From a virus: DNA of 37,477 bases. Every line of letters begins with the position of its first letter. Positions within the stretch are counted from its first letter, which is position 1. Where the stretch lies: IMG/VR virus record IMGVR_UViG_3300045988_063029, positions 1-37,477 of that record, one strand, 5' to 3'. The notes beneath the pieces were generated by a model. The model ran no database searches. It saw only the letters and a program-made list of their open reading frames with translations, and had not been told where the DNA came from. The position numbers were made by a program, and so were the translations under genes. Of this stretch, positions 1,500 through 35,367 are shown in pieces.

Positions 1500-2216
1500 C
1501 TATTGTTCTAATTGTTTTAATACTTCTGATCTAAATTCTTCTGGGATATTAACGCCATAGGTTATGTCGTTTAATCTATTTACATCCTCGATCGAATTGA
1601 TATAGATTTGCAGCGAATTCAAATATACTCTGTGATACATCACGTGCTTGTCCATTGCTTCTTTCAGTTTCAAGATATCTTCTTTACTAAATATCGTGTC
1701 AACCTCATTGTCTGCATGATATGGCAATAATGTATCGCCAGCATTCGCACGTGCTGCAAGTAAATTTATATATGTCTGATTTTGCTCTGTAAATGAAAAA
1801 TGACCTTTGACTGCGTTTAATTCAAGGTCTAATCCTATTGTTATGATCTGATTGCATTCATTGGTCATTTCTTTTATTTTTCCAGATCTTATAAATTCAA
1901 GATCCTTTGTATTTTCTTTTTTCTTTTCTGTATCATTGGATACTTCCTGCTCCTGGTTAAGTGCCGTGATGATCCCATCATAAATACTCTTGGATGTTAT
2001 TTCTTCCAGAATTACAGTTTCGTAGTCCCCTGCTTCTTTTGGCATATCATCCCAGTCTTTTACGTGGTAGATTCTAATACCATTTCTTTGTATAATTCCT
2101 TGCGGATTATCATCTTTATTACATCTTAAAAACATTTTTGCATTTTGATCATATTTTACATATTGTAATTGTTCATATGCATCAATGATTTTTCCATTTT
2201 TTACTGCCTTATACAT
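1500..2216 (-). CDS. Hypothetical phage protein. The C-terminal half resembles DUF4376-type tail-fibre-associated domains.
   Basis: The 238-aa ORF has a start that overlaps the RT stop by 16 nt (2201-2216), implying co-transcription and coupling. It lies between the tail-fibre/DGR region and the holin. The family call is from memory only. Confidence 0.55.
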   Translation of the reverse strand: MYKAVKNGKIIDAYEQLQYVKYDQNAKMFLRCNKDDNPQGIIQRNGIRIYHVKDWDDMPKEAGDYETVILEEITSKSIYDGIITALNQEQEVSNDTEKKKENTKDLEFIRSGKIKEMTNECNQIITIGLDLELNAVKGHFSFTEQNQTYINLLAARANAGDTLLPYHADNEVDTIFSKEDILKLKEAMDKHVMYHRVYLNSLQIYINSIEDVNRLNDITYGVNIPEEFRSEVLKQLEQ

Positions 2217-3331
2217 AGTCTTTCCTTTCCGAAAAGGTTAGAGTACAATTCTTCCATGTTTTTGATTGTATAATATGCGTTAAAATGTCTTGCGTATGAT
2301 CTCCAACTCTGAAAAGCACTCCACGCATCCTTTTCTGTCATTCTTCCAGCCTCACAGAATTTCTTTAACTTCTTTAGTTTTCTCCTTTCTCTTGTTACAC
2401 TTTTCTTGTAAATTTTCTTTACAATCTTTCCTGATGGTGTCAAGAAGAATCTTCCTTTCAACCATGTAAAACCATGACTAAGTTTTACTATTTGAGTCTT
2501 TTTGTCATTCAGAATAATTCCAAGTTTTTTACATTCCTCTTTTATGACATTCAGGCATTGTTTTAAATATTTTTTATCTGGATGAATCAAATAGCCATCA
2601 TCCATATATCTACCATAATATTTCACTTTTAGTTCTTCTTTAATCAAATGATCCAATTTATTACATGATGCAAGTGCTAGTGTTTGGCTGATCTGTGATC
2701 CAAGTCCAAGCCCTTTGTTTCCTTGAAAGCAATCAATAAAATGATTTATCAAATCAATAGTCCTTTGATCTTTAAATGATTTTTGAACGATTTCTTTAAT
2801 CACATCATGTGATACATTATCAAAAAACTTGCTAAAATCAAATAACAAAATATAGCCATCTGTGCAATATTTTCTATAATGATATTGTAAATGTCTAATC
2901 ATACGATTCATAGCAAAATGATATCCTTTGTTTTTGATTGATGCTCCATTGTCATAGATAAAGCTTCCTTCAATCACTGGTACTAACGCGTGATCGCAAA
3001 GGCACCTTTGAACAATGCGTTCTTCAATCTTCACGCTTTTAATCTTCCGCTTTTTCCCTCTTTCAAATAAATCAAATTCACAGAATCCTTTGCTTCTAAA
3101 TTTTCCATTCATCAATTCTTTTCTCGTTTGATAAACATTTAACGGTGCTTGTACGATGTATTTTTGTGTTGATGCCTTCCATCCAACATTTCTTCTACAT
3201 CGAATATAAGATTTATAAAGATTTTCATAAGAAAAAAGCTCATTAAAAGAAAGAAGCTTTTTCTTTTTCTTAACTTCTCTTCTTTCTTTTCTTCTTTTAT
3301 ATCTTACTTCTTTTCTCTCTTCGCTCGTCAT
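2201..3331 (-). CDS. DGR reverse transcriptase
   Basis: The RT palm motifs are present: FDFSKFFDNVSH, GLGLGSQISQ (the DGR-typical I/LGxxxSQ motif) and YMDD. The RBS AAGAGGT precedes the start. A TR/VR pair and avd lie immediately upstream. Confidence 0.9.
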   Translation of the reverse strand: MTSEERKEVRYKRRKERREVKKKKKLLSFNELFSYENLYKSYIRCRRNVGWKASTQKYIVQAPLNVYQTRKELMNGKFRSKGFCEFDLFERGKKRKIKSVKIEERIVQRCLCDHALVPVIEGSFIYDNGASIKNKGYHFAMNRMIRHLQYHYRKYCTDGYILLFDFSKFFDNVSHDVIKEIVQKSFKDQRTIDLINHFIDCFQGNKGLGLGSQISQTLALASCNKLDHLIKEELKVKYYGRYMDDGYLIHPDKKYLKQCLNVIKEECKKLGIILNDKKTQIVKLSHGFTWLKGRFFLTPSGKIVKKIYKKSVTRERRKLKKLKKFCEAGRMTEKDAWSAFQSWRSYARHFNAYYTIKNMEELYSNLFGKERLCIRQ

Positions 3332-3552: not shown

Positions 3553-3662
3553 AGAATCCAACGCACACGCCATAGCCGCCGGTAGCATTATTACTATTGA
3601 TATTACCATTGTTATTGACATTGCGAAAAGACACCGCACCGCCTGCATCCGCAGACCTCAGT
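3553..3662 (-). repeat. DGR template repeat (TR), non-coding
   Basis: Positions 3558-3661 align without gaps to 4231-4334 (104 bp). The 6 mismatches are all at plus-strand T, which is coding-strand A, in the TR. The TR reading frame carries 8 AAY codons. The outer boundaries (3553, 3662) are less certain. Confidence 0.92.
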
Positions 3663-3689
3663 GTCACACAGAATATAACCTGTTTTTAA

Positions 3690-4100
3690 TTATTTTAAGA
3701 ATTTTTGAAATCTTTTTCTGTCTTTTGTCATAGCACCTTTAATCAAATTAATCTGAGTTGCTATTAACTCTGACCATTCTTCTAAAACCTTCGTTTCAAA
3801 ATGTATTAATTCATATGCAACCTCAATCTGTGATACTAAATTTTGACATTCCACATATGCTTTTAAGAAAAACTCTCTTCTTATTTGAACTTCTCTTGCA
3901 TTTGTCGGATAAATGCTGTTTGCCTTTTTGGTGTTTGCATATATTTGCGTTGCAGCATCTGCAAGATGTTGTCCCAAATAAAATGTATACCTTTTAGGAA
4001 TTGTATTTACACAACGCCTAATTGTATATATTTCAAGCTTTCTTGCGTTATTTAAAAACTCCATTTCTGAAAGTCCTCTTTGGCTTTTGATCACGCTCAT
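3690..4100 (-). CDS. avd: Accessory variability determinant (Avd-like four-helix-bundle protein)
   Basis: This small helical basic protein lies between VR and TR, the canonical avd position. The IPKRY segment resembles the Avd IPRKH region. GGAGG lies 8 nt upstream of the ATG at 4100. The ORF track start at 4115 has no RBS. Confidence 0.75.
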   Translation of the reverse strand: MSVIKSQRGLSEMEFLNNARKLEIYTIRRCVNTIPKRYTFYLGQHLADAATQIYANTKKANSIYPTNAREVQIRREFFLKAYVECQNLVSQIEVAYELIHFETKVLEEWSELIATQINLIKGAMTKDRKRFQKFLK

Positions 4101-4186
4101 TACTTCATCCTCCATGTGTCAGTATATCATATTTTTGTTTTTGAATCGACCGCCTTACGGCGGTTGATATATTGACTGCTTTTTTT

Positions 4187-4208
4187 CTGCCGGGACATAG
4201 CCCGGCAG
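4187..4208 (-). other. GC-rich hairpin/cruciform just downstream of VR (candidate DGR target-recognition element)
   Basis: CTGCCGGG-ACATAG-CCCGGCAG forms an 8-bp GC-rich stem that ends 10 nt (4208) from the target-gene stop codon (4218-4220). On the transcribed strand it is followed by A residues, not U, so it is not an intrinsic terminator. Confidence 0.6.
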
Positions 4209-4217
4209 ATAATCTGA

Positions 4218-7200
4218 TTAAACCGAGAAGCCAACGCACACGCCATAGCCGCCGGTAGCATTAGTACTATAGATACTACCATAGTTATTGACACCGCGAA
4301 AAGACACCGCACCGCCTGCATCCGCAGACCTCAGCCAATAATCCCATACTGATCCTGTACCGTTATAGATGCACTTTTTCCTCGAATTGTTGTCAGTGTA
4401 GCATGAGAACGTCACTTCTTCTGCTTCTGTTGAAACTTCGTTTTTATAAGGAACTGCCGTTAGCTCAGCTCCCACTTCACAAATTGACGGAATTCTCAAG
4501 TGATCCTGTGATGTTGTTATCGTCGTTGATTGGTTTCCGGCACTTGCCAGCGTATCCGACAACGCGATAAAGTTTCTCCATTGCGGTGGCAGCATAGGAT
4601 ATAATGTTTTATTCATCCATTCTCTTAGCGCGCTCTTATCCCATCCTCCTTTATTCGTTGCGGTCTTATTCATTTGTTGTCTGATTCCGAGCACACCAAT
4701 CATGTAGAAATCACCATTCGTCATTCCTGTTCCCGATGACAATGCGTAATGTCCTTTGGAATGATATCTAAATACAATACTTTCGTCCGGAATAATCTCG
4801 TTCTCTTTTGCTTTCTGCGGTACCATTTTGATTAATGCCGCCGGGGTGAATCCGTATTCTACAGCTTTGCCCATTTTAAAAATTGAGTAAAACTCTCCGA
4901 ACGTGTATGCAGATTTATCTTTTGGATCATCGCTGTAAGCATAGTCATACTGTGTTAAATCCTTGATCTGTCCTGGTAGCTGTGGGTAGATGTACGTTGC
5001 GTTAATGTCCATGTCTTGCGTAACGTCGTCCGCTGTCTTGTCCCATCCAATCCATACATATCCGGATTTTTCAAGGTCTTTTCCTTCGTAGATACAAGAT
5101 CCATGAGCTTTTACATTATGGATCTCGATTACTTCTCCTTCGTTCAGGTATCTTACAACGTATGCCCTTGTCTGTGATGTAAACAATGCTGTTACCGTTG
5201 TATCTTGTGTGATATTTTCAATCGGCACGTCCCATTTGAAGAAAGTATACACATTATCCTGGTCCGGCTCTTTGATCGGTGTCCCAATATATCCTACCTG
5301 GATCGGATCTTGTGCAGCTCCTCCATGCTCAACCTTTTGTGTATTCAGTGTTGTTCCATCCCAGTTCTTAAATGTTACTGTATGCTCTTCCAATAGCTGA
5401 CCGTATGTAAATGTTACTGTTCTGATCGCATCTGACAATTCTTTGTACTTTGTCGGCGAAATTCCGTCAAAATAAACAGATCCTGTCAATACTCCGTTTT
5501 CTGTGTTATGGCCATCGTCGTCAATACCATTCGCTTCATGTAATCTCATTAATGTCCTGTAGGCTTTGACCGTTGTCCTCCAATCAATGTCAATCAATCT
5601 TACTCTTGTCAGGTTTTCCGCGTTCATGGCAATTGTTAAAGTGTCAAGTGCTGGGCTTCCTGAAACATTCAATGTTGTTAAAAGATTGTACGCTTGTAAT
5701 GTAAATTCTTTTACATACATCAGGTTTTTTGCAAAAATTGATGTAACTGCATTCAGTTTTGCTTTTTGCAATCGCTGGTATGGTGCAAATGTGACGCCTG
5801 TGATTCCGCTTCCTCTTGTATAGCACTCTTTTACGTTAATGTTATTGCTAAGATCTAGCTCCTGCGCCAGTGCTGGGCAGTTTTCAACATTGATGTACTC
5901 CAAGGATGTCGCGTTTTTTACAGTTACTTCTTTCATATTTGTATTAACGTACCCATCTGTACTTGAGCCGATCTGTGCTCGTTTTAGTTTTTTACAACTT
6001 GCAATGTCTGTGTATCCAGGATATAAGCATGACAGGTCTCCAAGATCCTGAATAAATGCAGCGTTTCTAATATAGATTTCTGTGTCATTCATCTGCGGTA
6101 CGCCCAACTGTAATTCAACTGCTTTTCCCGCCGTTGTTCGTTTCTGCGTCGTTCCGGACCCAGCTTTTACAGTTATCCATAAGTCACTGTAAGGTGTGAT
6201 CGTCATCTTGCTTTCTGGTGTGATCACAAGATTCCCACTTGTTGGTGTGTACCCTCGAATCGTTGCGCTTTCTGCCGTTGCGTAGGGACTTATAAAGTAA
6301 GAGCTCATAAATGCTCTTTGGTAGTGTAAAAACTGTCGCCTTTGCAGTCTCTTCTGCCCATTCAGCATCGGAATGTATGCAGACGTTCCAAGGACTGTGT
6401 ATGTTTTAATGTCTTTCCGCCACACATCTTCAATCCATAGTGATTCTGCTGCAAGCGACTGTATTTCTTCGCAGTGATCTGCAAACGCATCAAGATCCCA
6501 TGCTCCAGCATTTTCACGATTGATGTACATGTTTGCCAATTCCTGTGGAAACGCTTTCCACATCATCTGAAAGACGGTTGCATCTGCTGCGTTAAATACG
6601 TCTCTGGTTCCAATCTTATCGTAATCCATGTACCCATACTTAAGTGTTAAGCCACCCTCGTTGTCGTTCCCCATTGCTGTATCATTATCATACGCAAAAC
6701 ATAGATTCCATTTTCCAGATAATTTACTGTATCCCCAGAAAGTGTTCTTCGCTCTGTTGTCGACCTGGCTAAATACCAGAGTGATCAGTACGTGCCACAT
6801 TACGGAATCTACAATCATGTGATCTGCTGCTTCTTTCCTGAATTTTGCAATCCTATACTCCTTTGAATCCACTGAAAAAGCCTGGCCGTCAATTGTCACT
6901 ACACTTGGCAGTGTTTTGTTTGTTGCTGCGTCTGCATTGCAAGATACTACCCATGTCAAAAAGTCTTTCCACAATTGCTTTGCTTCTTCTTCATTTTGTG
7001 ACTCCGCAAGGTGTCTAAATTCAAAGTTTGTATCTCCGTCCCATGTCTCTGTCGAAAGATCAGCAGACTTCATTCGGCACTGATTGGATGTATTGTTTGC
7101 TACCTCAATAACGATCACATCGTCTGTTTCATTTTGTGCAAATACATCCAGATTCTTTTTCGAATTGTTGATATTCCCCAACGAATAGAAAACTGTTTCA

Positions 7201-10200
7201 TCTGGTGCTACTGTCATAGGTCCAACCTGTACCGCTTCATTTCCAGTGTTGTGAAAAAATAAAGCTGCCATGTGTCCCTCGACTGTATCTCTTACCTTTT
7301 TATTTATTTGCTTTGCTGGTCGTGTATATGGCTGATATGTATTGTACCAGTCAGATACCAGAATGTTATTAATATGCTCCTGTGATGCAACATTAGTTTT
7401 AAAATTCAGGTAATTAACCCCGATAGAATTATCTGTCATGGCATATGTGTCAACGTGGCTTCCATCTTCAAGATCAAATCCATTTTTAAAATTAAAGTCT
7501 TCATTGCATCCGGCCTGTACATATCCAAGGGATGATGTACCCTGTGCCTTCTGTTCTACGTTTGTTGCTGTCCATGAATGTGCTGCGCCACCTTTTACAT
7601 ATTTATGCGTAACGCTTCCTGTGATCTTCTGGCTTTTTGCCGTTGATACATTCGGAGCATGCCACGTGAAAACGTGCAGACCTGGATTGAGCGTTGCAAC
7701 TTTATCAGGATCCAAGTTTCCAGAGGAATCATAAAGCTGATTCCTGTCATGTCTTGCCATGATCTCAGCCCCATCTTTCCCATCTGCGCAGAAGTTTGCC
7801 TTGATCTCGTCTGTTGTAAGATCTCGACTGTATACTCTAATCATGTAGATAACCACATCACAATCATCAGACCCGATTGTGATTCCTACAGGTGTTGTCT
7901 GTTTCAAGTTGTCATTGCTTGCATAGATTGCTGCTTTTGCTGGTGTTCCTCTTTCCCACAGCATCACCAGGCGATTTTCTGAATCCGGTTCAATGTTCAC
8001 TTCTGCTTCTGTCTTGTACCCCTCACATAATGGATATTCAAGCGTTGTCTGCTCGGTTTTCACTGTCATCGAATTGGCTTTCATACTTAATCCAATGTTG
8101 TTATTCATGCATGTAATTGCCTGCGCATCAAACAATGAGCTGTTTTCAACCTTGTAAATAAATTTAAAGTTTCGCCCATCTTTTCTTGCATCCGTTCCAA
8201 ACAATTTATAATCCAGTGTAATCCTGTCACCTTTTACTACCTTGATACATCGGATTCCTTCTGGATCCGTCTGTAATCCACCGTTATGCGTATCAAAATT
8301 TTCGGAAAGTGTCAGACCACTGACTATTTTTAGATCTGTGATCTTGTTCGGATCAATCTTTAATACAAGACTGTCTGTGATCTCACTGATATCAGATGAT
8401 AGTGCAGAGACTTCAATCGTCTTTTCCCACCTCTTTCCATCACATTCAATTGCAAGTTTTAGCGTTCCTGCATCCGTTGTTCTATAACTCCAGATGTGTT
8501 CCGATTGATCTACGCTTTCGGTTGACTGTAGAGTGTCATTAATGTAAAAATTTACTGTTGTCGGATTGGCAGAGCTTAATACTCTGTATGGGATTGCCAG
8601 TGTCGCGTACTGGTCGACCTTTTTCTCTGTCAGTTTGGCTGCAACGACTGTCCCACCACCATCTTGTGCAACCGCACACGTGAGTGTGTCAGATGTTAAC
8701 GTCACGCCGTTCAGTGACATTGTCCCGTACACGCTTACCTCATGTGCTCCAGCTGTAAGTGTTGTGCTAAACACAATCCTTCGCCCTGTCGTTGTTACCT
8801 CCTGCATGCTTTGTTGGATGCCGTCTACCGTCAAATAAATTCTTTTTACTCCTGATCCTGTTGGCGTTACGTAAATTGTCAACACTCCACTGTTCTTCTC
8901 GGTGTTTCCAAGATTCCAGTCTAACGTAAATGATTCCATTGTGATCGTTAACGTTCTTGTCGCTGTTGCTCCATATGTATCGGTCATTGTAAGCTTGACC
9001 GTATTGGCGCCGCTTGAAAGATGCTCAAAAATGTCCAATGTGATATTGTCGCCCTGTTCAATTGTTTTGTTCTCTTTCAGGATTCCTCCGACATAGATTG
9101 ATAAGTTTCCAGCCCCTGTTGGTGTCTGTGTCGTTGCGTCCAATGATGAGAATTTAAACTTGATTGGTGCTGTTCCATTTGTCTGTAAAACTGAAAATGC
9201 CGCCGGCGAGTACATTGCAAATACGAGTTTGGATCCGGAACTAGATCCCCCACCTGTCCCTATAAAGATTGGATCAAATCCTTCAATGTCTGTCCCGTCC
9301 TGTGTCAGGTGTAGATATCCATCTTCGCTCATATACCCAGAATTAAAAGCAAGCCCACCACTTCCTGATCCAGTTCCTACTGTGATACCGTCGCTTATGA
9401 TCTCGCCATTGTTTGTAAGGTATAACTTCCCATCTTCCATCCGGAAACCATTCGCATAATTGTTCGAGCTTTTTGTCAGTAGCTCTATGTTGTTCGTAAG
9501 TAGCCGAATTGCATCTTGTAAAGCATCTGTATCTTTTTCATTATCGATAATTCTTGACCTGAATTCTTCATTGAGCTTATCAAATGATACTGCCCCGTCT
9601 GCGATTTTTTTCGTTTTAATAGCTCCGTCTGCGATTTTTTCTGTTGTCACACTCTCGTTTGCCATCTTCTCGGATGTGATCGATCCGTCTTTAATTTTTC
9701 TTTCTGTTACAGAATTATCACTGATCTTATCTTCTGTTACTGCCTGATTTCCAATTTTTTCAGATGTCACAGATGAGTCTTGCAGCTTTTTTGACGATAC
9801 TGAGCTATCTTTTAATTCATCCGTAGAAACTGATTGATACTGAAGTTTCTTCCCTGTTACTGTTCTGTCACTGATCTTATCTTCTGTTATTGCTCCATCT
9901 GCAATTTTTTCACCTGAAATGCTTCCATCTGCAATCTGTGCAGCCTGGAACTCTCCCTGTGCTTTCCATGCTCCATTCGTATAAACGTACCAGTTTCCGT
10001 AGACGTAACCTGCTTCTGATCCGTAATAGACGTAGATCTTTGATGTGTCTGTCATTTCCGCTGCTGTTTTTGCAGATAGTGGTGCTCCATACTGGTTTTT
10101 GTCTGCTTTAGTCTGCTTTAGGTTTTCAATGTCCTTCTGTATATCATCCAGTACGCCCAGTTCGTTTTCACTGACTGTCGCAGATTTTAATAAAGATTTT

Positions 10201-10520
10201 TTTACATCTAAATTAAATACAAAGCTTTGCACGATCTCTTCATCTTTCGATAATTCAATCTGGCATTCTGTGATTCCTGTTTCTGCAAGTGCCTGTTCTG
10301 TCAGCTTTATGATTACTGCATTTTCCGAAATTTCGCAATTATTGTAAATTATTTTTTTCGATTGTTTTACTGCGATAAATCTCGCTGTTACCCCTGTAAG
10401 GTTTAGTCCTATAATGTTACATTTTAAAACGCGGCCGGTATCTCCTTGTGTAACCTCTGCTGTTTGTCTGATGCCCTCGCTTGTTAAATCAAGTGTTATT
10501 GTTTTATCTACCATTGCCAT
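4218..10520 (-). CDS. Giant tail fibre / receptor-binding protein, the DGR target (BppU-like N-terminus, fibre repeats, Ig-like and LRR-like regions, C-type-lectin-fold VR domain)
   Basis: The 2100-aa ORF follows Tal. Its N-terminal ~110 aa resemble the baseplate upper protein N domain. Residues 196-315 form 12 decapeptide repeats. The C-terminus YWLRSADAGG...GVCVGFSV is typical of DGR CLec-fold targets. An ATG at 10514 is better spaced from AGGAG than the ATG at 10520. Confidence 0.85.
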   Translation of the reverse strand: MAMVDKTITLDLTSEGIRQTAEVTQGDTGRVLKCNIIGLNLTGVTARFIAVKQSKKIIYNNCEISENAVIIKLTEQALAETGITECQIELSKDEEIVQSFVFNLDVKKSLLKSATVSENELGVLDDIQKDIENLKQTKADKNQYGAPLSAKTAAEMTDTSKIYVYYGSEAGYVYGNWYVYTNGAWKAQGEFQAAQIADGSISGEKIADGAITEDKISDRTVTGKKLQYQSVSTDELKDSSVSSKKLQDSSVTSEKIGNQAVTEDKISDNSVTERKIKDGSITSEKMANESVTTEKIADGAIKTKKIADGAVSFDKLNEEFRSRIIDNEKDTDALQDAIRLLTNNIELLTKSSNNYANGFRMEDGKLYLTNNGEIISDGITVGTGSGSGGLAFNSGYMSEDGYLHLTQDGTDIEGFDPIFIGTGGGSSSGSKLVFAMYSPAAFSVLQTNGTAPIKFKFSSLDATTQTPTGAGNLSIYVGGILKENKTIEQGDNITLDIFEHLSSGANTVKLTMTDTYGATATRTLTITMESFTLDWNLGNTEKNSGVLTIYVTPTGSGVKRIYLTVDGIQQSMQEVTTTGRRIVFSTTLTAGAHEVSVYGTMSLNGVTLTSDTLTCAVAQDGGGTVVAAKLTEKKVDQYATLAIPYRVLSSANPTTVNFYINDTLQSTESVDQSEHIWSYRTTDAGTLKLAIECDGKRWEKTIEVSALSSDISEITDSLVLKIDPNKITDLKIVSGLTLSENFDTHNGGLQTDPEGIRCIKVVKGDRITLDYKLFGTDARKDGRNFKFIYKVENSSLFDAQAITCMNNNIGLSMKANSMTVKTEQTTLEYPLCEGYKTEAEVNIEPDSENRLVMLWERGTPAKAAIYASNDNLKQTTPVGITIGSDDCDVVIYMIRVYSRDLTTDEIKANFCADGKDGAEIMARHDRNQLYDSSGNLDPDKVATLNPGLHVFTWHAPNVSTAKSQKITGSVTHKYVKGGAAHSWTATNVEQKAQGTSSLGYVQAGCNEDFNFKNGFDLEDGSHVDTYAMTDNSIGVNYLNFKTNVASQEHINNILVSDWYNTYQPYTRPAKQINKKVRDTVEGHMAALFFHNTGNEAVQVGPMTVAPDETVFYSLGNINNSKKNLDVFAQNETDDVIVIEVANNTSNQCRMKSADLSTETWDGDTNFEFRHLAESQNEEEAKQLWKDFLTWVVSCNADAATNKTLPSVVTIDGQAFSVDSKEYRIAKFRKEAADHMIVDSVMWHVLITLVFSQVDNRAKNTFWGYSKLSGKWNLCFAYDNDTAMGNDNEGGLTLKYGYMDYDKIGTRDVFNAADATVFQMMWKAFPQELANMYINRENAGAWDLDAFADHCEEIQSLAAESLWIEDVWRKDIKTYTVLGTSAYIPMLNGQKRLQRRQFLHYQRAFMSSYFISPYATAESATIRGYTPTSGNLVITPESKMTITPYSDLWITVKAGSGTTQKRTTAGKAVELQLGVPQMNDTEIYIRNAAFIQDLGDLSCLYPGYTDIASCKKLKRAQIGSSTDGYVNTNMKEVTVKNATSLEYINVENCPALAQELDLSNNINVKECYTRGSGITGVTFAPYQRLQKAKLNAVTSIFAKNLMYVKEFTLQAYNLLTTLNVSGSPALDTLTIAMNAENLTRVRLIDIDWRTTVKAYRTLMRLHEANGIDDDGHNTENGVLTGSVYFDGISPTKYKELSDAIRTVTFTYGQLLEEHTVTFKNWDGTTLNTQKVEHGGAAQDPIQVGYIGTPIKEPDQDNVYTFFKWDVPIENITQDTTVTALFTSQTRAYVVRYLNEGEVIEIHNVKAHGSCIYEGKDLEKSGYVWIGWDKTADDVTQDMDINATYIYPQLPGQIKDLTQYDYAYSDDPKDKSAYTFGEFYSIFKMGKAVEYGFTPAALIKMVPQKAKENEIIPDESIVFRYHSKGHYALSSGTGMTNGDFYMIGVLGIRQQMNKTATNKGGWDKSALREWMNKTLYPMLPPQWRNFIALSDTLASAGNQSTTITTSQDHLRIPSICEVGAELTAVPYKNEVSTEAEEVTFSCYTDNNSRKKCIYNGTGSVWDYWLRSADAGGAVSFRGVNNYGSIYSTNATGGYGVCVGFSV
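4226..4335 (-). repeat. DGR variable repeat (VR), encoding the last ~38 codons of the 2100-aa tail protein
   Basis: The VR aligns to the TR as described in the TR entry. VR encodes LRSADAGGAVSFRGVNNYGSIYSTNATGGYGVCVG. The TR frame encodes LRSADAGGAVSFRNVNNNGNINSNNATGGYGVCVG. Confidence 0.92.
9576..9935 (-). repeat. 12 tandem 30-nt (decapeptide) coding repeats in the tail fibre gene
   Basis: The repeats read IADGSISGEK / IADGAITEDK / ISDRTVTGKK / LQYQSVSTDE / LKDSSVSSKK / LQDSSVTSEK / IGNQAVTEDK / ISDNSVTERK / IKDGSITSEK / MANESVTTEK / IADGAIKTKK / IADGAVSFDK. Confidence 0.85.
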
Positions 10521-10524
10521 TCTC

Positions 10525-12639
10525 CTATCCTACAGTACCTGTGATGATTCCATTTTCCACAACGAGACCAGCATTGTCCGCCTTTAGTCCTCCAGATGAA
10601 TCCTGCGTAATCTTCCTGACATACTGAATTGTCCCATTGTAGCCACCGTCTATCTTGGCGTTCAAAATCTTGTTCCCTTTCATGTCAAGATCACACAGTA
10701 CATTTAATGCTTTTCCTGTCAATCCTGTGTATTTTCCTCTAGTGTACACCATGATCGGCGTATACCCTGAGCCATCACTGTTTTTTGTCCCCCAAAACAT
10801 ATAGTCGCCATCTTCTAATTCAAAAACAAGTCCCGTCACATCTTCGTGATCTCGTAAATTGTTTGATCCGATTCTTCCTGTGTAGTATTTATTATTTACA
10901 ATTTTCATGATCGCGTTCGCGATCTCAATCGAGTCATTTCCAGATAAATTTTTTATTGTTGCATTACCTGCAACAAATTCTCCAGTATTTAAATTCCAGT
11001 AGTTTCTTCCTGTCTGATCTGCTAACAATCCAGCTACGATCGTGTCTGCGATCATTCCTGCTGCTGTGATCGCTGTCGTCCAGTCCCAGTCTTTTCCGTC
11101 TGCTGTTCGTCTTTTGCTTATCATCAGCCCTTGTGTGCCAATTGCAAGTGCTCCATACGTTTCACTGCTTTCGTCTAGGTTTTCAAACAGGATGGCCATG
11201 ACATCCTGTTTTTTCGCAACATTGTACTGTGCTCTCAGGCTTGTCATTGCTCCGTTTATAAATCCTCTGATTTTTTCTGCAACGAGTGATCCATCTGACC
11301 GAATTGCTTCATCGATCTTGTTGATGCTTGCCGCAATATCGTCAAAGTAATTTGATTGTTTTTCAAAATCTCCCAAAACTACGTATGTTACTTTTTTCTT
11401 GATGCAGTCGTACTTCATTTCTACAACTCTTGCATCTGTATTAATATCCAGTTTGCAATGTCGGCAGGGGATCGTGTCTCCAAGCGACACTTCTTCAAGC
11501 ATTGCGTAGTCTTTGTACAAATCTGTGTTTTGCAAAAGGATCATATCGGCATCAATTGTTATTGTTGGCTCATCGAGTCCCATGTCAAACTGATCGTTGC
11601 ATTCTTTTGTTAATGCAGCGTCAAGTTCTTCCTGTGTCTCGCACACTGTCCATCCTTCTTTGATCGCTTCATCCCTTGCTTCCTGTTCTTCTTCTTCTCC
11701 TTTTGCTTTAAGATCTTCAATCTCCTTTTTGATCTCATTTCTTTCTGTCAAGATCTCATCCAGCTGTTTCTCGTAATCAGCCTCTTTTACCTTATTCAAT
11801 TGATGCTTTCTTCTTAACGTTCTTTCTTTGACGCCGTTTGCAACAAGCTTCACTTGCAGCTCCCCAAGCTGTTTTAAGTTTTCCTCCTCTTTTGTCGTAT
11901 CTTTCATCCGCACATTATCAAATGTTATTGTCGCACTTTTTACTGTTGGATAGTTATTTATTAGTGGCGAATCTACGTAACCATGATTAGACATCGTTAC
12001 TCCATCGTATCCCTTTGGGTAAATTCTAGTTACAACATTTCTGGTATCGATCTCTTCTGTCAGTCCATCCGCTTTTATGTTTTTCCCATACCTCAATTCT
12101 ACGCCATAATCGCCGCCAACTCTTTTATTGATAATCACCGTATGATTATTAAACAAGATCTCGCCGCCCCATCGATTTATAAACGAGTTTTCATCGTCGC
12201 CGTTGATAGCTTCGATTAAATTCATATATTCATAGTGCGCAACTGATACCCAGGGGATATCAGAGCTTGCAGAGTACTTATTGTTTGCTGCTGTCATGAT
12301 ATCCAAAGCTTCTTGACCGTTTTTCATCGTTGGTCTTACATCTACCAGGAAGCAATCATCTTTTGCATCCATAAAGATCGGTTCAAGTGATGCCGTTATC
12401 TGCGAGTCTGATTTTTCTTTTTTTCGGATTCTAAACAACTGATCTCCGTTAAAGCTTGGCATTTTTACGACTGCCTCATCTTCAATGTATTTCCAGCGAC
12501 CGCCTGCATCGATCGGATGCGACAGTTCTGCCGTCCACGTCCCATTCAAAACAGTGTGTACAATTGCTTTAGACGGCATCAATGTCATGTCTCCGTTTTT
12601 ATCAAAATTCGTATTGTCCGGCTTATAAATTTGTATCAT
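10525..12639 (-). CDS. Tail-associated lysin / tail endopeptidase-like protein (Tal, Prophage_tail-like N-terminus)
   Basis: The gene sits in the Tal position after Dit. The N-terminus (IYKPDNTNFDKNGDMTLMP ... LFRIRK ... RWGGEI) is typical of siphovirus Tal. The ATG at 12639 forms an ATGA overlap with the Dit stop and is preceded by GGAGG. Confidence 0.8.
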   Translation of the reverse strand: MIQIYKPDNTNFDKNGDMTLMPSKAIVHTVLNGTWTAELSHPIDAGGRWKYIEDEAVVKMPSFNGDQLFRIRKKEKSDSQITASLEPIFMDAKDDCFLVDVRPTMKNGQEALDIMTAANNKYSASSDIPWVSVAHYEYMNLIEAINGDDENSFINRWGGEILFNNHTVIINKRVGGDYGVELRYGKNIKADGLTEEIDTRNVVTRIYPKGYDGVTMSNHGYVDSPLINNYPTVKSATITFDNVRMKDTTKEEENLKQLGELQVKLVANGVKERTLRRKHQLNKVKEADYEKQLDEILTERNEIKKEIEDLKAKGEEEEQEARDEAIKEGWTVCETQEELDAALTKECNDQFDMGLDEPTITIDADMILLQNTDLYKDYAMLEEVSLGDTIPCRHCKLDINTDARVVEMKYDCIKKKVTYVVLGDFEKQSNYFDDIAASINKIDEAIRSDGSLVAEKIRGFINGAMTSLRAQYNVAKKQDVMAILFENLDESSETYGALAIGTQGLMISKRRTADGKDWDWTTAITAAGMIADTIVAGLLADQTGRNYWNLNTGEFVAGNATIKNLSGNDSIEIANAIMKIVNNKYYTGRIGSNNLRDHEDVTGLVFELEDGDYMFWGTKNSDGSGYTPIMVYTRGKYTGLTGKALNVLCDLDMKGNKILNAKIDGGYNGTIQYVRKITQDSSGGLKADNAGLVVENGIITGTVG

Positions 12640-13334
12640 AAGCACCTCCAGTTTGGTATAACCTTCAAGCCAAATCCTTCTGTTATCTCTATTGTGTTAT
12701 CCCCTTCTTTTAAGTACAGTTCCTGGTAATCTCCTGTGACGGATGTATTCATCATTCTGCCGTCTTGTCTATACGCAAGCATCAGATCGGTGTCAATTGT
12801 TACGTTTTGGCCAACCTCAGCTACAAATTCATTTCCATTCACTGTTAATGTACATCTGCCGTTGCCCGTAATCAGATACGTTGGATGCGAAACTGAATAA
12901 GGATTGTATAGCACTTCTTGTTTTTCGTACTCATAAGTTCCAGAAGCAAGATACTGATGTCCTTCACAAATAAATTCAGTTTCAAACTCTCCTACCTGTT
13001 TTACCTCTCGTTCTGAGCTGCCTATTGTTGTATGCTTCACTTTGTAATAATAGCCTGGCATGTCCTCAAGAATTAACTTGTTGTCCGTTTTATCAAGCAG
13101 CCATTTTCTCGCCTTGCGGAAAAGATCTTGCCATTTTGCTGGATCAGCTGCAAATACGAATGTGATCTTGATCGTAATGTCGTCAACAAATTCTTCTTCC
13201 GAGTACAGTGCCCCGTCTCTTCCTGGTATGTCTATCGTCTCATAACGATACTCTGGCGCCGGGATCGCTGGCCTTTCTTTTACCAGCACCCCGGCTTCTG
13301 TGTTTGTTTTTTTGTTTCTCTTTATCAAATACAT
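12636..13334 (-). CDS. Distal tail protein (Dit, Sipho_tail-like)
   Basis: The gene lies between TMP and Tal. Its size (232 aa) and the IPGRDGALY motif fit the phage tail family. The RBS is TAGGAG. Confidence 0.8.
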   Translation of the reverse strand: MYLIKRNKKTNTEAGVLVKERPAIPAPEYRYETIDIPGRDGALYSEEEFVDDITIKITFVFAADPAKWQDLFRKARKWLLDKTDNKLILEDMPGYYYKVKHTTIGSSEREVKQVGEFETEFICEGHQYLASGTYEYEKQEVLYNPYSVSHPTYLITGNGRCTLTVNGNEFVAEVGQNVTIDTDLMLAYRQDGRMMNTSVTGDYQELYLKEGDNTIEITEGFGLKVIPNWRCL

Positions 13335-13372: not shown

Positions 13373-16114
13373 TCAACGCCCTCTGAATCGTTTGCTTGTG
13401 ATCCTGTTGTTATTAATTCCTTTTTCTGCCGTTTTGACGATGTATGCGTCAAATTCATGATTGCCAACTTGTACAGTTACTGCATTGTTCAGATTCACAC
13501 TCGCTCCTGCTGGCTGTAATCCGTTCAGGTTTGTTGTGATACCTGTGTTCATTTGATCCGCAACGCTTTGCATTGCATCTTTTACCTTGTACACGTTCTT
13601 GTCAATTCCTTTTGCAAGTCCGTCCATAAAGTCCGGCATCCATGTCTCATAATCCCTTAATGGTCCTTCGTCTGGCCGTGAGAAATGTAGGAAACTTCTG
13701 ATCTTTCCGGCTAATCCTTTGACTCCTTCTACAATCTTATTGATCCCTGAAAAGATTCCGTTTTTTAATCCATTGATGAAATCAGATCCCCAATGATAAG
13801 CAGATCTTGCAAGGCCAAGTATAAATCCTTTAATTGTATTAAACGGACCTTTCACGATTCCGGCCAAGGTTGATACAACTGTTTTGATTCCTGATTTCAT
13901 TTTTGTAAATGCTCCAACTGCTACGCTTTTAATCGTGCTTGTTACAGTCGTGATCACACTCCTTATTCCATTAAATACTGTGGTGATCACTGTTTTAATT
14001 GCATTGACTACTGTTGTGATCGCTGTCTTGATTCCATTCCATACCGTGGTGACTACTGTCTTGACTGCATTGAATACAGTAGTTACTACTGTCTTGATCG
14101 CATTGAACACCGTTGTGATTACTGTCTTGATCGCATTAACTGCCGTTGTGATCGCTGTCTTGATTCCATTCCATACCGTGGATACAAACGTTTTCACTGC
14201 ACCGAACACCGTCATAATTACACTGCCTATTGCATTTACTGCACTTGATACAGCGCTTTTTACAGCATTCCATATATTACCAAGAAATGCCGTAATCGTA
14301 CTCCAGTTTCGTATAATTGCTATTACTGCTGTAATTGCTGCAATTACTCCAGCTACGATCGGCAAGAACGGTACAAGCGCCGTGGCCGAAAACGTTGTAA
14401 AGATCGTCATGATCGCAGCTATCGCTGGCGCTAATGTCGTAAACAGTGCAATCAATCCTGTAATTGCTATAATGACCGTTTGTATCGGTCCCGGTAATGA
14501 TCCGAATGCCTGTGCTATTGTTGATATAACATTAACAATAGGTTGTAGAGCTGTAACAATCTGTGTTCCAATCGGAATCAGGCTGTCCTGTAGCTTTCTG
14601 AGTGCTCCTTCCCATTTTTCTCCTGGTGTTTGCTTACTCATCTCCTTCGCTTTGCCCGTTACGTTGTCAAAGTCATTTCCAACTCCAAACAGCGCAACTG
14701 ATGCGTCGATACCTAAGTCTTCAAACTGTGTGGATAGTGTAGATAAGGCTTCTTGTTGTTCTTTTGGTGACATCTTTTTCAGGTCGTTCCCGACGCTTGC
14801 AGCAACGTCCTTGACCGTTGCTTTTCCTTTTTCCCATTCCCCAAATACTTTCTTTGTATTTGACGAAAAGTTATTGATATTCCCTTTAAACGTTCCGTCA
14901 CCCAAACGAATCTGAAACTCTTTCAATGCATCTGCTGCCTTATCTGTATTCATCGCTCCGTTTTCCATTCCGTTTTTCAGGAGCTGGAACATTTCTTTTC
15001 CTGAGTATCCGGCAGTTTTGAATAACGGCGAATACTCGTTGATCGTGTCCATAAAATCATCGGATGAGTTTAATCCGTTTTTATATCCAGCCGCCAGCAA
15101 GTCCATTGCTTCTTTACTGGATAAACCAAAATTTTTCATCAGCTTTCCAACAGCGACTGTGTTTTCTTTTACGTCTGTTCCAGTTCTTTTGGAGATTATT
15201 GCGAGCTGTCCGGCAACTTTCGAAAGATCTGTATCGTTCAGATCTGACATATTTTGCTTGACTGCGATGATGGCATCTGCTGCTTCATTTGCATCTTCCA
15301 CGACGCCTTGTTCAAAGACTTCCTGCGCGGCTTTTCCATATTCCTGTGTCTTTTGCTTCGACACATCAAGATTCGCCGCTATCTTTTGCTGGGCACTCTG
15401 CATATCATTTGCGGATTCTACCGCGCTTGATCCAACTTCTTTGATCTTCTCGCCAACAGCACTTAAGTTCTCCGCAGCTGTCATGATTGTTTGAGCACTT
15501 ATATTTTTTCCGATTCCACTGAGTTTTTCTGATGCCGTTTCGGATTTTTCGCCTAACTGTTCCAGTTTTTGTTGTGTTGCTACGATCTCTCGTTGTAGCG
15601 CATTGTACTGTTCTGGATTGATTGGTGCTCCAAATTCTTCTGTTACCTGCTTGGCTTCAGTTTTTAATCCTGATAATTTGTTTTTTGTTTCTGTTATCTC
15701 GTTTTGCAGCGCATTATACGCATCTGTATTTATCTCCCCTGCATCTTTCATGCTCTGCTGTTCATTTTGTAAGTCTTTTAATTTCTCCTTTGTTTCTGAT
15801 ATTTCTTTCTGAATCGGGTCGTACTTCGCCTTCCACGCATCGTAATTATCCGCAGATTTTGACACCTCTTCGTTTGCTTTTTTCAGCATCTCCAGTTTAT
15901 TTTTTGTTTCTTCTGCTGCCTGTGCCAGAAGTGTCTGCTGCTGCCTTAATAATTCTGTATTTCCTGGATCAAGTTTTAACAGACGGTCAACATCTTTCAA
16001 TTGAGCTTCGAGGCTGCTAATATTCCCATTGATTCCAGAAAGTGCTTTATCGAGTCCTGTCGCATCACCGTTTAATTCAATCGTGATTCCTTTTATATTT
16101 CTTCCTCTTGCCAT
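13373..16114 (-). CDS. Tail tape measure protein
   Basis: The 913-aa ORF has a coiled-coil N-terminus, a hydrophobic central segment and an 11-aa periodic repeat block (TVxNAIKTVxT, about 13909-14281). It sits after the G/GT chaperones. Confidence 0.9.
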   Translation of the reverse strand: MARGRNIKGITIELNGDATGLDKALSGINGNISSLEAQLKDVDRLLKLDPGNTELLRQQQTLLAQAAEETKNKLEMLKKANEEVSKSADNYDAWKAKYDPIQKEISETKEKLKDLQNEQQSMKDAGEINTDAYNALQNEITETKNKLSGLKTEAKQVTEEFGAPINPEQYNALQREIVATQQKLEQLGEKSETASEKLSGIGKNISAQTIMTAAENLSAVGEKIKEVGSSAVESANDMQSAQQKIAANLDVSKQKTQEYGKAAQEVFEQGVVEDANEAADAIIAVKQNMSDLNDTDLSKVAGQLAIISKRTGTDVKENTVAVGKLMKNFGLSSKEAMDLLAAGYKNGLNSSDDFMDTINEYSPLFKTAGYSGKEMFQLLKNGMENGAMNTDKAADALKEFQIRLGDGTFKGNINNFSSNTKKVFGEWEKGKATVKDVAASVGNDLKKMSPKEQQEALSTLSTQFEDLGIDASVALFGVGNDFDNVTGKAKEMSKQTPGEKWEGALRKLQDSLIPIGTQIVTALQPIVNVISTIAQAFGSLPGPIQTVIIAITGLIALFTTLAPAIAAIMTIFTTFSATALVPFLPIVAGVIAAITAVIAIIRNWSTITAFLGNIWNAVKSAVSSAVNAIGSVIMTVFGAVKTFVSTVWNGIKTAITTAVNAIKTVITTVFNAIKTVVTTVFNAVKTVVTTVWNGIKTAITTVVNAIKTVITTVFNGIRSVITTVTSTIKSVAVGAFTKMKSGIKTVVSTLAGIVKGPFNTIKGFILGLARSAYHWGSDFINGLKNGIFSGINKIVEGVKGLAGKIRSFLHFSRPDEGPLRDYETWMPDFMDGLAKGIDKNVYKVKDAMQSVADQMNTGITTNLNGLQPAGASVNLNNAVTVQVGNHEFDAYIVKTAEKGINNNRITSKRFRGR

Positions 16115-18640: not shown

Positions 18641-20110
18641 CTATTCTTTTGTGACTGTGATCGTATATGTTTTTGTTTCCGCTCCGTCAGTTACGATAAT
18701 TTTTACAGTATTTTCCCCAGCATCCCATGTCAGTTTTGTTCCGTTTGGATACTTCTTAGTCTTAAATTCGATCTCAACCTCTGCTGTTGCATCCGCTGGC
18801 AGTGCTGTGATTGTGTTGCCTGCATCTGTTGTTGTTACAGTGTATGCTGTAGTTCCTGCTGCAAATGTTTCGTTAAATTTCTTGTTAGAGAATTTCAGAT
18901 CTGCAAGTGTCGCATCATCTACATCTGCTGTATTCGTTACTGTTTCGATCTTGTAATAAGCTGGCTGTAAGTTCCTAATATCAAATACGATAAATGCATT
19001 ATTATCAACTGGGAATCCATGAGCGTACATCTTGATCAGATATACCCTTTCATCTTCTAGGAAGTGATATTCGTCAGAATACAGGATTTTTCCATTGTTG
19101 CCCATTCCCGCACCCATAAAGTAAAGGTTTGCAATTCCAAAAACTGCTTTTCCTTTTGGCACTGCTGCACTCTGCATAATATTGATATCAAACGGAAGTG
19201 CTGACACATATCCACCACCCGGTGCTGGGTACTGGATTGCTGGTAGAATCTTGCTGTAGTAATCGCTTGGATTTACAAGAAGGATCAAGTCTGTTACTGT
19301 TCTAGGCTGTCCTTTTTCATTCAGTGCCAGAATTGCAGCCTGTTTGTTTAACTGAATATTATCAAATTTTGTGATCTTTACAACGGATTTATCTGGATAC
19401 ACACCAGCAGTTACTGTAACATTATCGCCTACCTGTTTTGTCATTCCGATCGGTTCATCTTTTCCAGTTCCGTTGACAATTCCGTCTTCTAATCCATTTG
19501 CAAGTGCTTCATACAGAATTGTTCTGATGTAATTATCTAACCATTCTGGTCCAAGATCTAACATAGCTTTTGAAATTGGAATAAATGCTGATAATTTGTC
19601 CTGTGTTACATCAACTTCTTTAAATCCTGATTCTAACTCTTGAATGATTTTGTCTGTCAGTTTACCCCATGCAGCTTTCTGAAATCCGTTGGTATTCATC
19701 ATCATTCTTGTAAGTCCTGTTACACTTGTGAACTGGATCTTACTTAATAATGGGTGATTTGTTTCCAGATCATTAAATACGGAATTAATGATTGTTTCTG
19801 GCATGACAACGTCAAGATTTCCAAGTGCCTGTTTTGGATTATCGGATTTCATCGCATCCATAACTGCTTGATAGTATTCTGTTTCTACACTTGTCAGCTG
19901 TCTGACTCCTCTTGTTGCAAGTACTGTAACGTCATTGCTCTGTCTGAACTCTGATCTTGCCTGTGTCAGCACTGCTTCCTGGATGTTCTCACATAACTGC
20001 ATAAATCCATTGTCAAATGCTTTCAGGTCATCCTGCTGCATTGCTTCATGCATCAGCTGTAAGATTTCCTGTTTTTTTGTTTCTAACATGTCTAAATTTT
20101 TAATCGCCAT
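18641..20110 (-). CDS. Major capsid protein (HK97 fold) with C-terminal Ig/cadherin-like beta-sandwich domain
   Basis: The 489-aa ORF follows the protease. It has an N-terminal coiled scaffold-like segment. The C-terminal ~85 aa (YTVTTTDAGNTITALPADATAEVEIEF...YTITVTKE) look like a surface Ig-like domain. Confidence 0.85.
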   Translation of the reverse strand: MAIKNLDMLETKKQEILQLMHEAMQQDDLKAFDNGFMQLCENIQEAVLTQARSEFRQSNDVTVLATRGVRQLTSVETEYYQAVMDAMKSDNPKQALGNLDVVMPETIINSVFNDLETNHPLLSKIQFTSVTGLTRMMMNTNGFQKAAWGKLTDKIIQELESGFKEVDVTQDKLSAFIPISKAMLDLGPEWLDNYIRTILYEALANGLEDGIVNGTGKDEPIGMTKQVGDNVTVTAGVYPDKSVVKITKFDNIQLNKQAAILALNEKGQPRTVTDLILLVNPSDYYSKILPAIQYPAPGGGYVSALPFDINIMQSAAVPKGKAVFGIANLYFMGAGMGNNGKILYSDEYHFLEDERVYLIKMYAHGFPVDNNAFIVFDIRNLQPAYYKIETVTNTADVDDATLADLKFSNKKFNETFAAGTTAYTVTTTDAGNTITALPADATAEVEIEFKTKKYPNGTKLTWDAGENTVKIIVTDGAETKTYTITVTKE

Positions 20111-33780: not shown

Positions 33781-33804
33781 AAATAATGAAAAAGAGGTGA
33801 TAAA

Positions 33805-34221
33805 ATGCGTAGAATTGCTATGTTAAGAAAAGAAATGGGTATGAATCAAATGGAATTAGCAAAATATTTAAGATTATCCCAACAAACTATAAGTAAATAC
33901 GAAAACGGAAAAGCTGACCCAGACAAAGAAACTTTAATTAGATTATCCGAATTATTTAATGTCTCTACTGATTACATTATTGGGAACTCAGATAAGCGTG
34001 ATCATTCAGAGTTAACATATAAAGACAATCGTAATATAGCAAAAACCCTAGACGTGCTTAAAGATCAGGTAGACAACAACGAAAGTGGTGAATTAAATTA
34101 TAACGGGATTGAAGTTACAGATGATGATGCCGAGCTTCTTATGGATGCTCTTGATATGGCATTACGTCGGATAAAAAAGAAAAATAAAGAAAAGTATACA
34201 CCTAAAAAATATAAAAAATAA
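33805..34221 (+). CDS. CI-like XRE-family repressor (no S24 peptidase domain; ImmR-like)
   Basis: The N-terminal HTH is MNQMELAKYLRLSQQTISKYENGKADP, with RBS AGAGGTGA. The gene is divergent from cro and co-directional with immA-like and int. Confidence 0.8.
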   Translation: MRRIAMLRKEMGMNQMELAKYLRLSQQTISKYENGKADPDKETLIRLSELFNVSTDYIIGNSDKRDHSELTYKDNRNIAKTLDVLKDQVDNNESGELNYNGIEVTDDDAELLMDALDMALRRIKKKNKEKYTPKKYKK

Positions 34222-34222
34222 T

Positions 34223-34241
34223 TTTGTCAAAGTCTGACAAA
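34223..34241. repeat. Palindrome copy d (one mismatch): TTTGTCAAAGTCTGACAAA
   Basis: The copy starts 2 nt after the repressor stop and ends 20 nt before the exonuclease-BRCT start. Confidence 0.9.
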
Positions 34242-34260
34242 GAATAGGAGGATTGATATT

Positions 34261-35322: not shown

Positions 35323-35348
35323 TGTTATATATTTTTATACAAAATGAT

Positions 35349-35367
35349 TTTGTCAGAGTCTGACAAG
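35349..35367. repeat. Palindrome copy e: TTTGTCAGAGTCTGACAAG
   Basis: The 17-bp core is perfect. The copy lies 27 nt after the exonuclease-BRCT stop. Confidence 0.9.

Follow-up and report, generated by a model that had tools for sequence, protein, structure and literature searches.

Domain organisation and relatives of a giant CotH-domain target of a diversity-generating retroelement encoded behind the tail module of a temperate siphophage

The stretch of viral DNA considered here, hereafter the window, is the 37,477-nt IMG/VR record IMGVR_UViG_3300045988_063029 (positions 1 to 37,477), and the subject of this analysis is a large open reading frame (ORF) at 4218..10520 together with the diversity-generating retroelement (DGR) that follows it; all features of this gene and of the DGR lie on the minus strand. 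The ORF has an ATG start and zero internal stops and codes for a protein of 2100 amino acids (aa), as the initial annotation of the DNA had stated, so that a single intact reading frame accounts for the whole product. TAG recoding or read-through is ruled out for this gene, as the frame contains no internal stop codon of any kind. Upstream of it are encoded the tape-measure protein (PhageMin_Tail, 13373-16114), Dit (Sipho_tail, 12636-13334) and Tal (Prophage_tail, 10525-12645), the stop codon of the latter overlapping the AGGAGA Shine-Dalgarno box of the target gene (10514-10530 region). The first ATG (10520) is located only 1 nt past this box, while an in-frame ATG at 10514 (Met3) has a canonical spacing of 7 nt, and translation may therefore begin at the latter codon to give a product of 2098 aa. 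Past the DGR, on the same strand, follow a 238-aa ORF, a holin and a lysozyme-SH3 endolysin. The window, which further encodes an integrase, TerL, a portal protein and a capsid protein, is that of a temperate siphophage. A megablast search with a 20-kb part of the window found zero matches among 50,697 phage records, the phage thus not being among those deposited, and a look-up of the 2100-aa product by exact sequence likewise came back empty. The closest loci are found in metagenome-assembled genomes (MAGs) of gut and rumen Clostridia, for example that of an uncultured Ruminococcus (locus L005, 63% identity), which makes Clostridia the likely host group. The product of the 2100-aa ORF is very probably the distal tail fibre or receptor-binding protein of this phage as well as the variable protein of its DGR, and a member of the giant CotH-domain class of such targets.

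The variable repeat (VR) of the DGR, at 4226..4334, occupies the last ~36 codons at the 3' end of the target gene (aa ~2063-2098), within a DUF6273 domain. It is a 109-nt repeat with 94% identity to the template repeat (TR) at 3553..3661, which is rich in AAY codons (RNVNNNGNINSNNATGGYGVCVGF). Seven mismatches are observed along the 109-nt alignment of the two, all seven at TR adenines, of which the TR contains 24. The 23-nt core at the 3' end of the repeat is found in exactly two copies in the window, against zero expected by chance. A reverse transcriptase (RT) of DGR type (376 aa) is encoded at 2201..3331 (RVT_1, 68.9 bits; cutoff 29.6), and between VR and TR lies a 141-aa Avd-like accessory gene at 3690..4115, with a match to PF05635 of 19.5 bits (cutoff 33.8). 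A GC-rich hairpin with a 9-bp stem and a 6-nt loop is present at 4186..4209, 9 nt beyond the stop codon of the target. Its predicted DNA fold (-11.1 kcal/mol, z-score -5.4) is equalled by none of 200 shuffled sequences, and a run of A on the coding strand comes after it; no inverted repeat comparable to this post-VR hairpin is visible in the sequence after the TR. In the phage BPP-1, a hairpin or cruciform just 3' of the VR belongs to the DGR target recognition machinery, and the hairpin at 4186-4209 likewise appears to fit a target-recognition element better than an intrinsic terminator. Judged from its VR, hairpin, Avd-like gene, TR and RT, the DGR of this phage is complete. For annotation, the analysis as a whole establishes the identity of the 6.3-kb gene and of the retroelement that serves it.

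A scan of one genome per species returned 79 loci of the same family, 76 of which were analysable. The 79 loci derive mostly from gut and rumen Clostridia, with some from Bacteroidales and other phyla. Nearly all share the domain order immunoglobulin (Ig)-like, LamG, CotH, beta-sandwich, leucine-rich repeat (LRR), Flg_new and C-type lectin (CLec), and 53 of the 76 encode the protein as a single complete ORF (median 2050 aa, maximum 3003 aa). The initial annotation had considered the protein unusually large, which is not borne out by this median or by the 2245-aa target of Hankyphage. When 1.84 billion representative proteins (50% identity clusters) were searched with the family profile, more than 100 of the top 150 matches were similarly ~1800-2700 aa in length and matched the profile end to end. 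Homologues of the RT are encoded downstream of the target gene in 33 loci (tblastn), including 32 of the 59 loci whose downstream sequence extends to at least 3 kb, and all 33 RT-bearing loci contain an adenine-biased TR/VR pair in which at least 80% of the mismatches fall at TR adenines. Homologues of the Avd-like ORF (tblastn) occur in ~30 family loci, mostly directly upstream of the RT gene. Members of the family are common among the phages that Clostridia and Bacteroidales harbour in gut and rumen, and about half of the copies with adequate flanks are linked to a DGR.

The same annotation had described the target as a mosaic. This holds mainly for the N-terminal ~395 aa, which differ between members, whereas aa 395-1850 make up a core that is conserved and collinear, with a C-type-lectin tip as its usual cap. 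Between 62 and 939 aa precede the Ig region in the members of the family, and the BppU_N domain is found in 11 of 67 of them, the window protein included. The core is recognisable over long distances; in a tblastn search against phage records aa 494-1682 align with the p00 target of Hankyphage (E 8e-41), whose relatives align too, and aa 395-1845 match NatCom_3357 with E 4e-145. Proteins of this kind have been reported on several occasions. Thirteen 'category f1' DGRs were described with targets of ~2000 aa bearing CotH and Laminin_G_3 motifs (Wu et al. 2018, PMC5758913), the cluster PC_00012 includes a 2284-aa example with a CotH-like kinase (Roux et al. 2020, bioRxiv 10.1101/2020.04.01.020958), and phage proteins in which a CotH kinase domain is joined to a hypervariable C-type lectin have been noted as 'currently unstudied' (Benler et al. 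2021, PMC8008677). More recently, 'domain group 3' was defined for targets of >2000 aa with CotH (5JDA), carbohydrate-binding and LRR motifs (Macadangdang et al. 2024, bioRxiv 10.1101/2024.11.15.621889). The window protein resembles all four in its length of about 2000 aa or more, its CotH-like domain, its LamG-like or other carbohydrate-binding domain, its LRR, its C-type-lectin VR domain and its phage context, while the published class descriptions make no mention of BppU_N, decapeptide repeats or Flg_new, and group 3 was defined in Bacteroides. By its sequence and domain order, the window protein belongs to this already described and abundant class of giant CotH-domain DGR targets. Its size and domain order are the norm for the family, and nothing new in kind is found at this locus.

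When the whole protein is compared with Pfam, only BppU_N and DUF6273 exceed the curated cutoffs, weaker matches being obtained from overlapping pieces. The BppU_N baseplate-attachment domain (PF10651, 38.7-40.6 bits; cutoff 23.1) covers aa 5-132 (10125..10508) and, with the position of the gene behind Dit and Tal, bears out the BppU-like N-terminus first noticed in the sequence. The decapeptide fibre repeats also number exactly 12, as had been counted, and follow each other in perfect 10-residue register at aa 194-313 (9582..9941); they are matched by the PHROG tail-fibre families phrog_892 and phrog_28766 with E 1e-23 to 1e-27. The translation of 9228..9458 (aa ~355-431) contains a duplicated short motif and the expected Gly/Ser linkers, TGSGSGG at aa 383-389 and TGGGSSSGS at aa 422-430. 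The linker stretch shows low predicted local distance difference test (pLDDT) values at the start of AlphaFold2 (AF2) model 2, which comprises aa 395-1000 and was built from a 10-row alignment. The overall pLDDT of this model is 77.5, with block values mostly of 79-94 over most domains. It contains three beta-sandwiches of Ig/macroglobulin (MG) type at aa ~430-529, 533-619 and 625-705 (8406..9233), in agreement with the Ig-like stretches of the initial annotation. Foldseek relates model 2 to the tandem MG/Ig arrays of complement C3/C4/C5 and alpha2-macroglobulin and to the adhesin 4p99 (E 1e-7 to 1e-10), and weak Big_7, Big_13 and CE2_N matches occur in this region of both the window protein and its relatives.

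The Ig-like array is followed by an all-beta domain of model 2 at aa ~719-910 (7791..8366), a probable LamG/ConA-like jelly-roll and a module that the initial annotation did not list. Laminin_G_3 is detected in the aa 395-1000 stretch of three of 64 family members (best E 3.5e-9), while neither it nor any other Pfam family is matched in the jelly-roll stretch of the window protein, and the Foldseek search with model 2 is dominated by tandem Ig/MG arrays and does not single out LamG. The probable LamG assignment is thus drawn from the Pfam matches in relatives and from the published reports of a Laminin_G_3 motif in this target class (Wu et al. 2018, PMC5758913), rather than from the fold search.

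The centre of the protein, aa ~915-1418 (6267..7778), is predicted from AF2 model 1 and Foldseek to be a CotH-like domain of the atypical kinase fold. Model 1 (aa 1000-1700, from an alignment of 28 homologues) has a pLDDT of 90.5 and a predicted TM-score of 0.87, and its only strong matches in the PDB are the Bacillus cereus CotH structures 5jda (E 6.1e-7) and 5jd9 (E 1.2e-6), both with probability 1.0; LRR proteins follow with E 0.02 or weaker. The match to 5jda has a TM-score (normalised to the target) of 0.51 over 399 columns. The low-confidence suggestion of a CotH-type central region is thereby borne out at the level of the fold (5JDA, E 6e-7), which is likewise the best and only strong structural match when aa 1000-1420 are considered. 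The sequence identity to Bacillus CotH (5JDA/5JD9; PF08757) is only ~10%, and the domain is embedded in a predicted virion protein of 2100 aa, in contrast to the free, 42-kDa cytoplasmic or spore-coat enzyme of Bacillus. Among the matches of the domain in BFVD, which bear CotH or spore coat protein annotations, are gut-phage entries that already go by the names 'Spore coat protein H kinase fold' or 'CotH kinase protein'. The structural matches there extend to gp353 of Bacillus phage G and to crAss-like phages, where one protein has the name 'Spore coat protein-like protein'.

Two motifs quoted in the initial annotation are located within this domain; DNRAKN at aa 1254-1259 (6744..6761) has the D-x4-N form of a catalytic loop and YDNDTAMG at aa 1277-1284 (6669..6692) contains a D-x-D resembling a metal-binding motif. 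No variation is seen at D1254, K1258 and N1259 in the family alignment A3 or at D1278 and D1280 in alignments A2 and A3, and several other polar residues of the family alignment are likewise invariant. At 22-29% identity, the counterparts of the D-x4-N motif are DQRAKN in Hankyphage and DSRAKN in NatCom_3357, and those of the D-x-D motif are YYDGDTQMG and YDFDTAIG, respectively. Residues D1254 and D1278 are spaced 24 apart, as compared to 23 for D228 and D251, mutation of which inactivates the CotH of Bacillus subtilis. A kinase-fold domain with conserved active-site-like motifs is found in every copy examined. The persistence of both motifs in relatives that are only ~22% identical favours, on moderate evidence, a working nucleotide- or metal-dependent active site as more likely than an inert scaffold.

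C-terminal to the CotH-like domain, model 1 shows the strands of a small beta-sandwich at aa ~1419-1485 (6066..6266; pLDDT >90), kept in most family loci, and the regular short strands of an LRR solenoid at aa ~1490-1685 (5466..6053). The Foldseek matches of the latter rank under CotH and are weak, with InlJ (3bz5, E 0.02) and Leptospira LRR proteins among them, and the family profile matches the LRR chains 8glv and 4ezg. Two modules resembling Flg_new (the Listeria-Bacteroides repeat) are placed by sub-threshold Pfam matches at aa 1713-1782 and 1787-1845 (4986..5384), their previously quoted starts HTVTFKNWDG and YVVRYLNEGE being located at aa 1713 and 1787. Of 61 relatives compared beyond the C-terminal end of the CotH-like domain, 11 contain LRR_5 (best E 2.9e-72), seven LRR_8 (best E 7e-12), ten Flg_new (E <0.01, best 7e-7), five Flg_new_2 and 48 DUF6273. 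The LRR-like block and the two Flg_new-like modules of the initial annotation are thus upheld by the matches of homologues, and the former also by the modelled solenoid, although both stay below the Pfam thresholds in the window protein. The terminal module, at aa 1948-2099 (4224..4679), exceeds its threshold as DUF6273 (PF19789, 48.5-51.6 bits; cutoff 23.5) and is the C-type-lectin tip that carries the VR, as had been proposed for the C-terminus.

Among the characterised systems, the p00 target of the Bacteroides Hankyphage (BK010646, 31489-38226; 6738 nt, 2245 aa) is the best known of the class and provides a close comparison. It is likewise a giant single ORF with the VR in its last ~40 residues, it follows tape-measure, baseplate-hub and minor-tail genes and is followed by Avd, TR and RT, and it is collinear with the window protein over ~1200 aa (query aa 494-1682) that span the Ig, LamG, CotH-like and LRR regions, the D-x-R-A-K-N and Y-D-x-D-T motifs being kept. 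The identity is nevertheless only ~23%, and the BppU_N segment of the window protein finds no match in it. As the Flg_new and DUF6273/CLec segments also gave no tblastn match at E 1e-4, the VR-bearing tip of Hankyphage belongs to a different sequence class. The two phages further differ, Hankyphage being a Mu-like transposable phage of Bacteroidota and that of the window having a probable Clostridia host and a tyrosine integrase. The DGR of Hankyphage has been shown to be active on its 'tail fiber', and the target has been treated as such experimentally (Benler et al. 2018, PMC6199706; PMC12135933).

Similarities to two other phage proteins concern the ends of the window protein. Like the Mtd protein of the Bordetella phage BPP-1, the prototype DGR target, it is predicted to be a receptor-binding protein of phage that ends in a C-type-lectin fold, the VR of which is rewritten from the TR by RT and Avd in an adenine-specific manner. 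Mtd comprises 381 aa and has little beyond its CLec domain, whereas the CLec tip of the window protein caps ~1950 aa of further modules. With BppU of the lactococcal phage TP901-1, from which BppU_N takes its name, it shares the N-terminal BppU_N domain and the location of the gene after Dit and Tal in the tail module of a siphophage. The TP901-1 protein is ~300 aa long and carries a separate receptor-binding protein, BppL, while in the window protein the anchor and the receptor-binding modules are combined in one polypeptide.

From this organisation, BppU_N would dock the fibre on the Dit/Tal baseplate, as suggested by the name of the Pfam family and by the position of the gene, and the 12 decapeptide repeats with the Gly/Ser-linked motifs would form its shaft. 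The presence of BppU_N in this protein and in ten other members represents a direct sequence argument for baseplate mounting and supports the 'tail fibre' label of the Hankyphage target. The core comprises the three Ig-like domains, the LamG-like domain, the CotH fold, the small sandwich, the LRR and the two Flg_new-like modules, in an order derived from the models, the Pfam matches of relatives and the collinear arrangement of about 70 loci. It would hold the tip at a distance and offer fixed binding surfaces, probably for glycans or other components of the cell surface. RT and Avd would copy the TR with adenine errors and replace the VR in the DUF6273 tip, re-randomising up to about a dozen AAY-coded residues and thereby retargeting adsorption. 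The combination of fixed modules with one hypervariable tip, as the initial annotation envisaged, fits the evidence, and the DGR is presumably still active.

Several points nonetheless weigh against this interpretation or parts thereof. The presence of the protein in the virion and its binding of a receptor are predictions, the differences between VR and TR number only seven, and a single sequence cannot gauge the activity of a DGR. In the window protein itself, LRR_EndoS reaches 16.1 bits (cutoff 27.9) and Flg_new (PF09479) 20.2 bits over two stretches (cutoff 27). The HMM of CotH (PF08757) similarly gives only 15.4 bits, below the gathering threshold of 23.8, which is exceeded by two homologues, P0002 (30.1 bits; 63% identical over aa 1000-1700) and P0016 (25.1 bits), so that membership of PF08757 is by transitive homology only. 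Sequence-only searches of PDB chains with the whole protein, the profiles A2 and A3 and the homologue P0016 never reached CotH, and the link to this enzyme therefore derives from the fold comparison and from the Pfam matches of homologues. The equation of D1254 and D1278 with D228 and D251 of B. subtilis CotH, made by motif form and spacing, is tentative. The CotH-like domain is encoded in two pieces in several relatives, which would suit a scaffold as well as a split enzyme. Finally, a kinase on the exterior of the virion would have no obvious supply of ATP, and the lack of extracellular ATP points to a site of action within the producing cell, to a chemistry other than that of a kinase, or to a pseudo-enzyme.

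The conserved CotH-fold domain of the family may alternatively be a degenerate pseudo-kinase that serves as a rigid structural or ligand-binding spacer, its motifs holding the fold or a structural metal. This explanation is less probable than a working site but deserves serious consideration, as it is in keeping with an extracellular location where ATP would be scarce, with a PF08757 score far under that of canonical CotH and no HMM link to 5JDA, and with the tolerance of the domain to being encoded as two polypeptides, split between D-x4-N and D-x-D, in a six-locus sub-family. It accounts less readily for the invariance of D1254, K1258, N1259, D1278, D1280 and other polar residues and for motifs that persist at ~22% identity, as the maintenance of a fold alone seldom conserves residues so far. 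The putative CotH-type phosphotransferase could, at the other extreme, stand beside the DGR-diversified lectin tip so that the retroelement would retarget an enzyme, and not only a binding site, to substrates on the cell surface or the fibre. Such an arrangement is considered unlikely. In relatives the corresponding core recurs in two pieces or interrupted by endonuclease genes, and if catalytic it would there be a 'genes-in-pieces' enzyme. A possible substrate could be the Ser/Thr/Lys-rich decapeptide repeats of the fibre itself, phosphorylated before lysis.

An effector role is more improbable still. Here a kinase would travel on the virion, or be liberated together with it, and alter host signalling, sporulation or surface chemistry, the DGR retargeting its choice of substrate. 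Many of the likely hosts are spore formers among the Clostridia, and the catalytic-type motifs are conserved. A similar suggestion was made for PC_00012, for which manipulation of host signalling was proposed and a contact between kinase and VR predicted (Roux et al. 2020, bioRxiv 10.1101/2020.04.01.020958). In the window protein, the N-terminal BppU_N domain and the position of the gene right behind Tal indicate instead a structural protein anchored to the baseplate, and the rigid beta-sandwich, LRR and Flg_new modules and ~100 more residues separate the CotH-like domain from the CLec tip, which disfavours a close contact between the two. The Hankyphage target has also been handled as a tail fibre in experimental work. 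The family is further found in phages of Bacteroidales, such as Hankyphage itself, and these bacteria are not known to form spores.

A sequencing or assembly error that fused an N-terminal fibre gene to a C-terminal CotH-LRR-CLec DGR target could also account for the size of the ORF. Two adjacent genes of ~800-1250 aa are indeed encoded in nine relatives (L003, L004, L011, L041, L043, L050, L062, L066 and L070), and a word-index protein search returned only matches of <1200 aa. The breaks in these relatives are nevertheless located inside the CotH-like domain (query aa ~1090-1280) rather than at domain boundaries, and homology crosses them, while the protein is continuous in the 53 single-ORF loci, in Hankyphage and in NatCom_3357. 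The more than 100 long representative proteins among the top 150 cover the whole profile in one stretch, and AF2 model 1 folds across the region with pLDDT >80. An artefact of this kind is accordingly extremely improbable, and the fusion of several genes by sequencing error, which the initial annotation had named as a possibility, is rejected, with 53 of the 76 related loci encoding one ORF.

All breaks observed within the family are confined to query aa ~1090-1280, out of a length of about 2000 aa. In six loci (L041, L043, L050, L058, L062 and L066) the gene is cleanly divided into two between the DNRAKN and YDxDT motifs, for example at 10760-10860 in L043 and 5660-5760 in L041, and the second half is preceded by its own GGAGG Shine-Dalgarno sequence and ATG (MRKKIVFLPYDMDTAIG...). 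Three of the six split copies occur in one Lachnospiraceae MAG and one in the isolate genome of Sporofaciens sp. SGI.106. In two further loci the halves are separated by inserts of ~1 kb. That of L054 (3459-4493; ORF 3616-4353) codes for a homing-endonuclease-like protein with NUMOD3 and NUMOD1 (and weak GIY-YIG) domains, and that of L081 (2220-3418; ORF 2527-3285) for a weakly matched PD-(D/E)XK-like protein, the break falling inside the invariant WDYDND|TALG. A scan of the interrupted L081 and L054 loci with Rfam found no group I or group II intron, and the inserts may represent either free-standing endonucleases ('genes in pieces') or an unrecognised intron.

Other relatives depart from the single-ORF arrangement by in-frame stop codons. 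Locus L053 (123-6251 of the 'Mollicutes bacterium' MAG contig JALEXS010000063.1) has a frame of 2042 codons with 23 in-frame TAG and zero TAA or TGA codons, which suggests a TAG-recoded phage; TAG recoding is known in some gut phages. Single in-frame TAG codons in L004, where relatives have Gln, and in L011 may reflect either recoding or a nonsense mutation. A single in-frame TAA is found in the CotH-like region of L003 (11043-11063) and L070 (3911-3913), and in L003 it directly precedes AAAGGAG-N6-ATG, so that both halves could be translated. The 69.5-kb contig of L004, which contains one of the split homologues, also encodes a second DUF6273 protein of 764 aa with a Big_2 domain (1-1130), ~7 kb upstream, and this may represent a second DGR-type lectin target in one phage.

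Elsewhere in the window, the major capsid protein (Phage_capsid, 18641-20110) ends in a Cadherin-like beta-sandwich (28.3 bits; cutoff 24.2), which may be a fused head decoration or adhesion domain. There is a 16-nt overlap between the 3' end of the RT gene and the 238-aa ORF (1500-2216) that lies between the DGR and the holin; the sole match of this ORF is a weak, sub-cutoff one to DUF4376 (18.3 bits). The sole plus-strand block of the window, at 33800-37348, has a low GC content of ~30% and codes for a BRCT-containing DEDDh exonuclease (34261-35322) as well as a tyrosine integrase (36158-37348). In view of its strand, its low GC content and the integrase, this block is probably the lysogeny end of the prophage.

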